DNA from: an uncultured Hormoscilla sp.
GTDB lineage: Bacteria > Cyanobacteriota > Cyanobacteriia > Cyanobacteriales > Desertifilaceae
Assembly (NCBI GenBank): GCA_963921275.4
Contig: OZ001293.3
Coordinates: 4,704,001-4,768,000 of the forward strand
DNA length: 64,000 bases
Direction: 5' to 3'
Both the position numbers and the translations under genes were made by a program. The notes under the pieces were generated by a model that saw nothing but the letters and a program-made list of their open reading frames with translations, made no database searches and was not told where the DNA came from. Below, one piece after another: positions 36,978 to 58,663 of the stretch. Positions within the stretch are counted from its first letter, which is position 1; every line of letters begins with the position of its first letter.

Positions 36978-37131
36978 TAAAACCCCAACCGAGAGGTTTC
37001 AAACCCCAACTGAGAGGTTTCAAACCCCAACCGATAGGTTTCAAACCCCAACCGATAGGTTTCAAACCCCAACCGATAGGTTTCAAACCCCAACCGATAG
37101 GTTTCAAACCCCAACCGATAGGTTTCAAACC
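36978..37131. repeat. About 7 tandem 21-bp repeats (TTTCAAACCCCAACCGATAGG)
   Basis: Near-perfect 21-bp periodicity next to a TTTTGACCACACCC end at 36941-36954. Confidence 0.9.
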
Positions 37132-37851
37132 TCGGAACAGTGTGTCCCGCTGCGTTCAGGTAATTAGTTATCAGGTCAGCACTGCTCCGGGTACTATTTT
37201 GGCCAATAGCGTCCCCGGTTAAAGCATCACGCTGGAAACCGAACATGTGACGTATCATTTTTTCCGTATCCTCTTAGGGTTAGGGCTAATTTTCAATTCC
37301 TAACTTTTTCGTTAACTCCATCTTGTCATACATATTTTGCTTTGCCAAGGGCTAAAAGTGGGATAAAAAGTGGTAAACAGTGAGTAATATGAAAGTTTTC
37401 CAGTCCTAACTTAGTTGGAAAAAGTAGGATTTAGTTGTTAAAGTGGCAAATAGTGTGATATAGTGGGATATGCTAACCTTAACTATGACCGGTGATTCTC
37501 ACTTTGACCTCTGGACATCCAAGAAATGCTACAATGGACCGGCGATCGGGTATTCGCTAAGACCGGCAAACCTCTGGACTCCGGGTGTGGTCAAAAGTAG
37601 TTGCGGCGGGGGATCCCATGCACGATCAACTGGCTTTGACCACACACCCGTTGCCAACGGGCCCAAGACCACTAAAACCCCAACTGAAAGGGTTTAACCC
37701 TCAACAGAGAGGTTTTAAACCCAAACAGAGAGGTTTAAAACCCAAACAGTGGGGCACCGGTTAGATTGGATGCGGTCACAAGTAGTTGATAGCCGGTGCA
37801 TCGATGATGCATGTAATATAGCCCGCGCAGGCGGGCTTTGTTCCTGTAGCC

Positions 37852-39593
37852 GGATGGGGTCGAGCCGGGAATCGCTTCCCGACCCTCCCTTGAGGAACCG
37901 GACTTGCGATTTTCACCGCATCCGGCTACTGGGTACTAGGCCCTTTTCATAGGTGGATGGGGTCGAGCCGGGAATCGCTTCCCGACCCTCCCTTGAGGAA
38001 CCGGACTTGCGATTTTCACCGCATCCGGCTACTGGGTACTAGGCCCTTTTCATAGGTAGACTTAATAGGAATTACTTCCGTTAGCCCTTGCCGCCTGTCT
38101 TTTCTTCCCTTTCCTGGTTTAGCGAGTGGTTGTTCTGATAACCGTTAGTATCACCATTTTCAAGTCAGTTTTACCAGTTATCCATACCTTATCCTCCACT
38201 TGCGTTTCGGATTAGTTCCGTGGCTTTTTAGGATTACTCATTCCAGCAGCTTCCTAGTATCACCGACCCACGTCAGCGCTGGCTACCCAGCATCATCTAC
38301 ATTACTGTAGATGTTATCCCAGGAATTACCCCGGGCATTCGCTTCTTGGGTCATCCCTCCCCCCGTGGCTTGCGCTTAACATCTAACTTGTCCTGATGGA
38401 CAGCACACGAGAGGTTACTTCGTTCCCTAACAACATTTCGCGATACCTTTAGGTCCACACTATACCCCGGGAGCTATTTGAGTACTATATTAGCCAGAGT
38501 CTAAAACTAATACTAGCTACCATTTCCTTTTTAGGCCAGCGCATATAGCCTTATTTCGCTGGTTCCTTATAACGAGGCTTGCACATGTTTGCCTGCTCTA
38601 ACCTTGGATATCTTTCCTAGCGGCGTCACCGGCTTAGGCTGCCAGTTATCCTACATTTGAGTCCTCGCTTAGCACCACGATGATGTCGCTTCGTAGCACC
38701 GAGGACCGGTGTCACCCCCGTACCTGGGGGGAGGGGAATTTAACCCCCATGCGGTCAGAGTTCCCGGCTAATGAAACCGGGCTAGCGTTCCGTGTTTGAC
38801 CACGTTAGGCTAGAACGAATCGCACAGACTTAATAGGAATTACTTCCGTTAGCCCTTGCCGCCTGTCTTTTCTTCCCTTTCCTGGTTTAGCGAGTGGTTG
38901 TTCTGATAACCGTTAGTATCACCATTTTCAAGTCAGTTTTACCAGTTATCCATACCTTATCCTCCACTTGCGTTTCGGATTAGTTCCGTGGCTTTTTAGG
39001 ATTACTCATTCCAGCAGCTTCCTAGTATCACCGACCCACGTCAGCGCTGGCTACCCAGCATCATCTACATTACTGTAGATGTTATCCCAGGAATTACCCC
39101 GGGCATTCGCTTCTTGGGCCATCCCTCCCCCCGTGGCTTGCGCTTAACATCTAACTTGTCCTGATGGACAGCACACGAGAGGTTACTTCGTTCCCTAACA
39201 ACATTTCGCGATACCTTTAGGTCCACACTATACCCCGGGAGCTATTTGAGTACTATATTAGCCAGAGTCTAAAACTAATACTAGCTACCATTTCCTTTTT
39301 AGGCCAGCGCATATAGCCTTATTTCGCTGGTTCCTTATAACGAGGCTTGCACATGTTTGCCTGCTCTAACCTTGGATATCTTTCCTAGCGGCGTCACCGG
39401 CTTAGGCTGCCAGTTATCCTACATTTGAGTCCTCGCTTAGCACCACGATGATGTCGCTTCGTAGCACCGAGGACCGGTGTCACCCCCGTACCTGGGGGGA
39501 GGGGAATTTAACCCCCATGCGGTCAGAGTTCCCGGCTAATGAAACCGGGCTAGCGTTCCGTGTTTGACCACGTTAGGCTAGAACGAATCGCAC
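37852..39593 (-). mobile_element. ORF-less group II intron (outer copy, 871 nt) interrupted by a copy of itself
   Basis: 5' GTGCGATTCG at 39593; DV AGCCGGATGCGGTGAAAATCGCAAGTCCGGTTC and DVI at 37852-37930; 103+768 = 871 nt; removal restores GTAGCC|GGACC seen at 17960-17970. Confidence 0.9.
37955..38825 (-). mobile_element. ORF-less group II intron (inner copy, 871 nt)
   Basis: GTGCG at 38825; DV/DVI at 37955-38030; near-identical to 52813-53683. Confidence 0.9.
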
Positions 39594-39862
39594 GGACCCT
39601 TTAGGGTTCGGGCGGCGAGGCCGAGTATCAAGGGTGTGGTCAAAATCCATTGGTAAGAGGATCCCCCCCAGCCCCTCTCATACATATTTTGCTTTGCAAA
39701 GTAATAAAAGTGGGACAAAAAGTGGTAGACAGTGGGTCATATGAAAATTTTTTAGTTCTAATTTAGTCGTAAAAAGTAGGAGTTAGTTGTTAAAGTGGCA
39801 AATAGTGTGATATAGTGGGATATGCTAACCTCAACTATGACCAGTGATTCCCACATTGACCT

Positions 39863-41239
39863 ATGGACATCCAAGAAATGCTACAATGGACCGGCGATCG
39901 GGTACTCGCTAAGACCGGCAAACCTCTGGACTCCCTCCAAAAAGCTATATTAGAAGGTACTTTACAAGGTCCAAAATATCCAGAAATAGCCAAAAATAGC
40001 AATGTCAGTCACCATCATGTCAAGAAGGTTGGTTCAAAATTATGGAAACTCCTCTCAGATGTATTGGACAAAAACATCAAGCAATCTAATTTTCGCTCCA
40101 TTTTGGAAGAAAATGAATTTTCCAATATTTATAACTTGGGTGACTGTATGCAAATTGGTAACATCAATCTATGTGGAGAAAATAGCAACTCTCTAGCAAA
40201 AAGCAGATCGCCCTCATCAGAGAGGGACAACTCAGACAAGGTCGATCGGGAAAGATGCCACGATCTCAGAGATGCGCCGGAGTTGAATTGGTCGTGCGAT
40301 CGCCCCCAGGCCCTAACTACTCTCAAAGAATGGATTATCGAAAAGAATACCCGTCTAGTCACGATATTAGGATTATCCGGGATTGGCAAAACTGCCCTAG
40401 CGGTGCAGCTAGTGCAACTTCTACAAGACAACTATGATTATATCATCTGGCGCAGCCTGGAGAATTACCCGACTTGGTCGGACCTGCAAACAAACTTAAT
40501 GCAGTTTTTTTCCCAGCAGCAAGCAACTCAGTTCCTTTCACCCATCGACTACGTGCGATCGCATCGTTGTCTGGTAATCTTGGACGACGTGCAGCAAATA
40601 TTGGTGAGTATAGAATTAGCGGGCGAGTACCAACCAGGCTACGAAGATTATGGCACATTCTTTAAGCAAGTAACAAAATTCCCCCACAAAAGTTGCTTAT
40701 TACTCCTGAGTTGGGAAAAACCGAGAGAAATTGCCACCTTAGAAGGGGTGAACCGTCACTGTCGCAGCTTCCAACTGCAAGGTTTAGGTGCCTCAGGGCG
40801 GGAAATATGCAAAGAGAGAGGATTAACCGATCCAGACAAATGGTTAGAACTGATTCACCTTTACGGCGGTAATCCCTTATGGTTAAATATAGTTGCCACG
40901 ATGATTAGAGAATTATTTAATGGTAGCGTAGCACAGTTTTTATCTTGTCCCACCCTCTGTTTAGGAGATGTAGAACCTTTATTGCAGAAACATTGTCAGC
41001 GTTTGTCCGAGTCGGAAAAACAGGTAATGTTTTGGTTAGCAAGTCAAGAGGTGGCTGTCGAGATTTCCAGTCCCCCAGAAACTATCCCACTTTCCCCCTC
41101 AGATTTCTTCACAGCGGTACAGTCTTTGAGGCGACGTTGCTTAATTGATAAGGTCACCGAAAACAGGCGATCGCGCTTTACCCTTCAGCCTGTCATTAAG
41201 GAGTATGTGAAAAACAAATCTTGGGCGCAATCAAATTAG
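39863..41239 (+). CDS. NB-ARC/NACHT-like P-loop NTPase with N-terminal HTH
   Basis: GLSGIGKT, IIWRSL, CLVILDD, YGGNPLWL, SLRRRCLI. Confidence 0.85.
   Translation: MDIQEMLQWTGDRVLAKTGKPLDSLQKAILEGTLQGPKYPEIAKNSNVSHHHVKKVGSKLWKLLSDVLDKNIKQSNFRSILEENEFSNIYNLGDCMQIGNINLCGENSNSLAKSRSPSSERDNSDKVDRERCHDLRDAPELNWSCDRPQALTTLKEWIIEKNTRLVTILGLSGIGKTALAVQLVQLLQDNYDYIIWRSLENYPTWSDLQTNLMQFFSQQQATQFLSPIDYVRSHRCLVILDDVQQILVSIELAGEYQPGYEDYGTFFKQVTKFPHKSCLLLLSWEKPREIATLEGVNRHCRSFQLQGLGASGREICKERGLTDPDKWLELIHLYGGNPLWLNIVATMIRELFNGSVAQFLSCPTLCLGDVEPLLQKHCQRLSESEKQVMFWLASQEVAVEISSPPETIPLSPSDFFTAVQSLRRRCLIDKVTENRRSRFTLQPVIKEYVKNKSWAQSN

Positions 41240-51822: not shown

Positions 51823-58663
<6,841 letters not shown>

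Follow-up and report, generated by a model that had tools for sequence, protein, structure and literature searches.

We found two copies of the same group II intron, one inserted into the other, at 37852-39593 on the minus strand of the window, the 64,000-nt stretch of DNA analysed here (C1:4704001-4768000, from an assembly of 7.03 Mb in 7 contigs, one of which, C1, measures 6.88 Mb). A repeat scan of the find_repeats type displays this structure as a 103-nt direct repeat with a spacing of 103 (37847-37949 and 37950-38052, 98% identical) and a second direct repeat with a spacing of 768 (38058-38357 and 38826-39125, 100% identical over the 300 nt extended). What looks like two tandem duplications of 103 bp and 768 bp is, as the initial annotation had proposed with exact coordinates, an 871-nt intron within its own near-identical copy. 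The complete 871-nt unit at 37955-38825 (minus strand), which runs from GTGCG to CCCCATCC, lies between positions 768 and 769 of the second copy, and the two segments of this outer copy (38826-39593 and 37852-37954) align without gaps to positions 1-768 and 769-871 of the inner one. About one difference between the copies had been expected, and there is exactly one, at intron position 475, where the inner copy has A (38351, T on the plus strand) and the outer copy has G (39119, C on the plus strand). The junctions read ATTAAGTCT^GTGCG and CATCC^ACCTATG; since no base is common to both sides of either junction, the boundaries are unambiguous and the borders cannot slide. Excision of the inner copy in silico makes the outer copy whole again, which identifies the nest as a twintron. 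Its features, all on the minus strand, are the following.

38826..39593, minus strand: outer intron, 5' segment (intron 1-768), with the 5' GUGCG, predicted domains I-III and most of domain IV; aligned gap-free with one difference, equals the family consensus
37955..38825, minus strand: inner intron, 871 nt, ORF-less, GTGCG...CATCC; RF00029 match at 37957-38033 (44.4 bits); carries 475G>A
37852..37954, minus strand: outer intron, 3' segment (intron 769-871), with the end of domain IV and domains V and VI; identical to inner 769-871; RF00029 match at 37854-37930
38826..38840, minus strand: occupied self-target of the outer copy (intron 754-768), IBS2-like ATTCCTA and IBS1-like AAGTCT, +1 A at 37954; 12.47 bits
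38057..38072, minus strand: self-target of the inner copy (intron 754-769), unoccupied; the genome has 144 such empty self-sites
38497..38502, minus strand: EBS1 AGACUC of the inner copy (intron 324-329), exact complement of the consensus IBS1 GAGTCT, in a predicted 9-nt hairpin loop
39265-39270, minus strand: EBS1 of the outer copy
38600..38605, minus strand: EBS2 candidate AAGGUU of the inner copy (intron 221-226), complement of the consensus IBS2 AACCTT at -15..-10
39368-39373, minus strand: EBS2 candidate of the outer copy
37997..38030, minus strand: domain V of the inner copy (intron 796-829), within the Rfam match; helix present in 14-15 of 16 related families
37894-37927, minus strand: domain V of the outer copy
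39594..39611, minus strand: 5' exon of the outer copy (…CCGAACCCTAAAGGGTCC^), in a dispersed hairpin repeat of ~36 nt; the 3' exon begins at 37851

Ribozyme architecture and locus context

Both copies begin with GTGCG, which fits the group II start GUGYG, and both match the Rfam family RF00029 (domains V-VI) with 44.4 bits each against a gathering score of 40, over model positions 1-77 of 77. The longest ORF on the intron strand within 37852-39593 encodes 53 aa, and the inner copy contains none of 60 aa or more. Given the Rfam match on both 3' ends and only this 53-aa ORF, each copy is an ORF-less group II intron. The local fold predicts that G862 and A863 are bulged in domain VI, 8 nt before the last base, and it places the EBS1 candidate AGACTC (324-329) in a hairpin loop; covariation backs domains IV, V and VI, and domains I-III come from the minimum-energy fold only. 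The 5' end reads GUGCGAUUC, and the position +1 is an A in 81 of the 103 insertion contexts described below. Such a GUGCGAUUC start is counted among the IIB2 traits in an earlier study (PMC4649490), and the 871-nt ORF-less intron is probably of IIB type. The genome holds 75 matches to the group II maturase domain GIIM; one example of 592 aa combines RVT_N, RVT_1, GIIM and HNH domains and scores 356 bits against TIGR04416. We infer that the intron family relies on such RT/maturase/HNH proteins, encoded by other introns of the genome.

The inner copy had been described as lying in the same orientation just upstream of domain V of its host. This holds: the inner copy is complete, and covariation puts the insertion site in domain IV. 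The consensus of the family was aligned with 15 other ORF-less families of the genome (69-76% identical) and a consensus fold was computed. In this fold, a helix at 562-573/783-792 closes a domain that finishes 3-4 nt ahead of domain V (796), with compensatory changes at the pairs 567-789 (UA 5, AU 8, CG 1, UG 1) and 569-787 (CG 2, GC 12, UG 1); position and covariation support the assignment of this modelled domain as domain IV. A small inner stem (739-742/765-768), which encloses a GUAA-capped hairpin, covaries too. The insertion point immediately follows U768; it belongs to the 3' side of domain IV, with 27 nt left to domain V. An ORF-containing relative has a 592-aa frame that ends 16 nt short of the homologue of this stem's 3' strand (765-768).

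The outer copy itself is inserted in a dispersed hairpin repeat of ~36 nt (…CCGAACCCTAAAGGGTCC^GGCTACAGGAACAAAGCC…), parts of which are found at 37819-37851 and 39594-39630 of the window. The genome contains 78 copies of this repeat that resemble the empty site (at most 6 mismatches in 36), and five further family copies are located in the same context, which marks the hairpin repeat as a recurrent intron target. The longest frame across the reconstituted, intron-free junction is 216 nt, and no host gene is interrupted at 37852-39593. An Rfam CRISPR-DR28 match at 37819-37842 (36.6 bits against a threshold of 35) falls within the hairpin repeat, where no repeat-spacer array was seen, and is probably spurious.

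Several other repeats and introns were observed in the window. Shortly ahead of the intron locus, tandem 21-nt repeats (CAAACCCCAACCGATAGGTTT and variants) occupy 37000-37146, with at least five units in this first block, and 37653-37757. The whole locus is flanked by a direct repeat of 257 nt (37326-37582 and 39678-39934, 91% identity); the second copy of this repeat contains the start of a 458-aa ORF (39863-41239, plus strand) and the first copy starts a 75-aa ORF with a similar opening, which suggests a duplicated gene 5' end. Further on, a second nest of introns spans 52093-56921. It includes a copy of the 871-nt intron at 52813-53683 (plus strand) that lies antisense within the RT reading frame of another intron; this context recurs, with 12 occurrences genome-wide. 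On the minus strand, the nest also contains a pair of domain V-VI matches at a distance of 330 nt (52093-52169 and 52423-52499), an 831-nt-family copy at 55464-56293 and maturase-domain matches at 53777-54010 and 56685-56921.

Intron family and target rule

All copies of the 871-nt intron were collected by megablast at 93% identity or more, a genome-wide search that the initial annotation had suggested as a check; it revealed five copies occupied at the internal site and 144 empty self-sites. The 161 HSPs comprise 139 full-length copies and 22 partial ones, ten of which pair up as the two halves of five copies that are each split at 768/769 by a full-length copy. These five twintron loci are C1:1325884-1327625, 4741852 (the present locus), 5180205-5181946, 6029574-6031315 and 6410256-6411996, and a genome pattern search for the inner junction returned exactly the same five. 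Their outer flanks represent four distinct contexts, as two of the twintrons lie within the same repeated host element. When the 139 full-length copies and the five outer copies were compared position-wise to the consensus, 63 of these 144 showed no difference, 33 showed one, 29 showed two and the remaining 19 showed 3-12; such near-identity across the 144 copies indicates a very young family. Its insertions are found in 104 distinct contexts. In the second-largest family, with 72 full copies, the homologous site contains no self-insertion in the same orientation; the numbers are too small for a significant contrast. Genome-wide, we counted 400 domain V-like 34-mers against none in a shuffled control, and a first look with RF00029 gave 867 candidates, 150 of which were scored. 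The intron load of this genome is exceptional; a 2022 survey put the highest number of group II introns in one genome at 101 (PMC8919778).

One of the twintrons (C1:6025600-6032200) is situated in sense orientation in a gene of the rsmB/F type for an rRNA methyltransferase, where the end of the match to PF01189 (positions 2-75) coincides exactly with the junction. An antisense RT-encoding intron and a copy of the 831-nt family follow in this gene about 92 nt on, and in view of these further antisense introns the gene is probably broken.

Copies of these introns also meet in other arrangements. At C1:824934-826675 and C1:5447656-5450268, two and three copies of the 871-nt intron, respectively, follow each other head to tail with no spacer. 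Here an occupied site has presumably been used again, given that IBS1 and IBS2 persist in the 5' exon and only +1 becomes G. A 901-nt contig from the sequencing run of another organism also joins the end of the 871-nt intron to its start. At C1:3454542-3455513, a full copy is followed, in twintron fashion, by the terminal 103 nt of an outer copy, but is preceded by an ordinary genomic target that is present too at C1:1028772-1029641; this arrangement looks like the product of recombination between intron copies. The locus C1:361089-363236 holds a copy of the 831-nt family with an inverted full-length copy of the same family inside (1-321, full copy on the minus strand, 463-835), and appears to be an antisense self-nest, distinct in kind from the case of the 871-nt intron.

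For the target rule, the flanks of the 144 insertions were divided into 5 at the internal site, 3 in head-to-tail arrays, with the end of another copy as 5' flank, and 136 others; the latter represent the 104 distinct contexts, 103 of which were used to build a matrix. The consensus target consists of IBS2 A(A/C)CCTTA at -15 to -9, IBS1 G(A/G)GT(C/T)T at -6 to -1, and an A at +1. Counts among the 103 contexts include G at -6 (92), T at -1 (91) and A at +1 (81), and the variation at -5 (A 64, G 34, the latter allowing G-U) and -2 (C 75, T 23) is wobble-compatible. The consensus IBS1 block complements AGACUC (324-329) exactly, and the IBS2 block complements AAGGUU (221-226).

The intron had been suspected to carry a target for its own EBS1, with 5 of 6 possible pairs between AGACTC and AAGTCT. 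The pairing is correct, with its mismatch at -6, and a scan of the intron with the matrix from the 103 other contexts places the best match at position 768, with 12.47 bits compared to 4.28 for the runner-up. The score of this self-site tops 65% of the real sites, and the chance expectation for so good a site is ~0.02 per 871 nt. One position counts against the reading as a self-target: the internal site has an A at -6, where 92 of the 103 real sites have G.

The homologous place in the 15 other families mostly reads …UAGUAAUCCU^A, and that of the 871-nt family reads …UAUUAAGUCU^A. In a sister species, the homologue (91% identical, two full copies examined) reads …UAUAAAGUCU^ACCUAUG and thus contains the AAGTCT^A stretch, but its EBS1 loop differs through insertions and deletions, and the sequences in front of its two copies, …TTTTAGG and …TTTTGGA, are not GAGTCT-like. 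As the sister species has the stretch but another EBS1, the stretch in domain IV appears to predate the present guide. Judging from these two copies, self-targeting looks like a by-product of EBS1 retargeting.

Origin of the nests

The stretch ATTCCTA..AAGTCT^A in the intron's own domain IV fits its guides, which argues for reverse splicing into resident copies. We therefore hold it very probable that this ORF-less 871-nt intron, equipped with self-matching guides and served by helper proteins of other introns, was reverse-spliced into resident copies at 768/769 on at least several separate occasions, one of them at 37852-39593. In such a process, the excised intron RNA would be bound by an RT/maturase/HNH protein from another intron, and the DNA site would be picked through the pairing of EBS1 (AGACUC) and EBS2 (AAGGUU) and through a contact with the A at +1. 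The RNA would then reverse-splice into the chosen site and be copied into DNA, as in ordinary retrohoming. Where the chosen target is the domain IV stretch of a resident copy, the outcome would be a same-orientation nest at 768/769. Among the conceivable routes these steps appear the best supported, by analogy with established knowledge of mobile group II introns and with the Thermosynechococcus parallel (PMC2882425). The inner copy could presumably splice first, and domain IV should tolerate the insert.

Nesting could also have occurred a single time, with the resulting 1742-nt composite spreading afterwards as a unit to new sites. We consider this unlikely, even though the five twintrons share their architecture and their halves show 0-1 differences from the consensus, save for one outer copy with 5. 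Domain IV is the usual place of an ORF of ~1.8 kb, so that an insert of 871 nt need not block the outer ribozyme. Mobile composites are, moreover, raised as a possibility for the Thermosynechococcus twintrons (PMC2882425). The distribution of single-nucleotide variants speaks against a composite, however. The 475G>A change of the inner copy at the present locus is also found in two dispersed single copies (C1:790221 and 6407743), and the outer copy at C1:5180205 carries 61G>A, which is common to six single copies. Since these variants are shared between twintron halves and single copies, the halves derive from different sub-lineages. In addition, the two twintrons that occupy one host context have unlike outer copies (61G>A in one, five other changes in the other), and the internal site alone is an above-median target. 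As far as sequence variants can tell, the data favour separate invasions of resident copies over the spread of a composite, with the SNVs separating the two weakly (two informative shared variants).

We deem it very improbable that misassembly of a high-copy repeat has created the nest and that the real locus holds a single intron. The ~144 near-identical copies would invite such an error, and the short-read contigs of four sequencing runs, which end at repeat borders, span neither inner junction by 31 nt or more among the pieces listed. Some contig joints skip ~1742-1760 nt, with just 22-32 letters on one side, and are read as belonging to further copies of the dispersed host repeat that lack the intron. 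Searches with the exact 24-nt inner-junction pattern returned no match in public genome contigs and none in metagenome contigs, collections from which the genome itself is possibly excluded. A relaxed 17-nt pattern matched 13 + 23 loci, all 36 of which lack the intron by blastn and are chance matches; the same pattern had no match in four congeneric genomes (93-97% complete). With the junction absent from the four congeners and from both contig collections, no independent assembly displays the nest. An artefact is nevertheless difficult to reconcile with the two copies differing at one base, in a variant that recurs in two further copies, and with a junction shared by five loci whose flanks and private variants differ. 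The break also coincides with the exact intron termini and with the best predicted target, and the chromosome is represented by one 6.88-Mb contig, which suggests a long-read assembly.

Two DNA-level tandem duplications of 103 bp and 768 bp, produced by slippage or unequal exchange without intron mobility, would match the way in which a repeat finder displays the structure, but can practically be dismissed: two adjacent ones are needed, with borders exactly at GTGCG and at the last intron base and identical at five loci, and the sole difference between the copies is a lineage marker present elsewhere in the genome.

Use of self-sites and comparison with known twintrons

The suggestion that self-targeting could allow repeated nesting needs some qualification: the same site is occupied at five loci, but no nest deeper than two is present in the genome, all five inner copies being full uninterrupted 871-nt matches, and 144 self-sites are empty. 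Occupancy of the self-sites thus amounts to 5/149. Among non-self sites of equal or higher score, 40 are occupied and 173 empty (40/213), a proportion that is flattered by the training of the matrix on occupied sites. Taken literally, these proportions mean a several-fold lower use of the self-site than its score would predict. Possible reasons for this under-use include the mismatch at -6, loss of nested copies through recombination between the 768-nt direct repeats, and the youth of the family.

The 144 empty self-sites nearly match the 173 other empty sites of equal or better score in number. On this basis one might speculate, although we would give the idea little credence, that the family has become its own main target, that the self-sites act both as a copy-number-dependent brake and as a safe haven, and that they arose from an accidental retargeting of EBS1. 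Rising copy number would then divert more of the intron RNP to harmless sites within resident copies, recombination between the 768-nt direct repeats could remove nested copies again, and such a brake could help to account for the tolerance of a bacterium for some 400 introns.

Every ingredient is legible in the DNA, from the guide loops and the target rule (103 sites) to the internal site itself and a sister homologue that has the site but lacks the guide, so that the locus would illustrate how a change of guide sequence turns a retroelement into its own target. It also provides a testable estimate of self-site use (5/149, compared to 40/213 for comparable sites). Its practical weight is small; the locus is intergenic and gives no sign of an effect on the host.

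The cyanobacterium Thermosynechococcus elongatus is said to hold 28 introns, and the family described here would be ~5 times the size of that entire set. Mohr, Ghanem & Lambowitz 2010 describe ORF-less TeI3 (F3) introns within TeI4 (F1) introns in this organism, and the resemblance to our case is close: a cyanobacterium, ORF-less introns that are moved by the proteins of related introns, targets recognized mainly by base-pairing, and insertion into domain IV (PMC2882425). The inner copies there are identical and the outer ones diverged, from which the authors infer recent independent insertions, and they regard insertion into other mobile elements as a route of proliferation (PMC2882425). In Thermosynechococcus, however, inner and outer introns belong to different families, whereas here a single ORF-less element, with one difference in 871 nt, provides both. 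The insertion site differs as well: in Thermosynechococcus it belongs to the 5' part of domain IV, where it separates the first two ATGs of the outer ORF (PMC2882425), whereas in our intron it is found on the 3' side, beyond the ORF position.

In the archaeon Methanosarcina acetivorans (Dai & Zimmerly 2003), repeated site-specific homing into group II introns is reported, with the target termed a 'perpetual homing site'; these nests lie outside host coding sequence, and deletion by homologous recombination offsets insertion (PMC4424553). Nesting there reaches up to five levels with related introns as targets (PMC4424553), compared to two levels and identical ORF-less copies in the present genome. 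The 'zombie' twintron cox1i1149g2 of lycophyte mitochondria (Zumkeller, Gerke & Knoop 2020, PMC7049729) shares with our case that an intron lies within itself, in domain IV, and that the inner copy is highly similar to the outer one. That twintron is organellar, confined to one locus, ancient and conserved across a plant family, and its inner intron is probably dysfunctional according to the authors (PMC7049729). Here, in contrast, five recent events are found on a bacterial chromosome, and both copies essentially equal the family consensus.

In the plastid twintrons of the red alga Porphyridium purpureum (Perrineau et al. 2015, PMC4476101), the inner intron encodes its own protein, and remnants of ORFs are present in the two outer introns, whose mutual identity is 78%. 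The twintron Tr.e.I7/I8 of Trichodesmium erythraeum is likewise a cyanobacterial group II twintron, and its host intron also starts with GUGCGAUUC, but it consists of two different ORF-containing introns, the inner of which lies in domain I, and it interrupts a conserved protein gene (Pfreundt & Hess 2015, PMC4649490). Sequential splicing of Tr.e.I7/I8 was shown in vivo (PMC4649490), and by analogy sequential splicing is plausible for our twintron, too. Twintrons have been described in Euglena plastids as well.

In the searchable full-text literature, no bacterium turned up in which an ORF-less intron lies inside an identical copy of itself; a closer parallel may exist in the original description of the Methanosarcina nests. 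The nest described here is real, but it departs only modestly from intron-in-intron arrangements already known; the nearest case that we found, in lycophyte mitochondria, is single, old and probably dead. What appears to be new, relative to the literature searched, is a protein-less bacterial intron that homes into identical copies of itself, and that has apparently done so several times in one genome.
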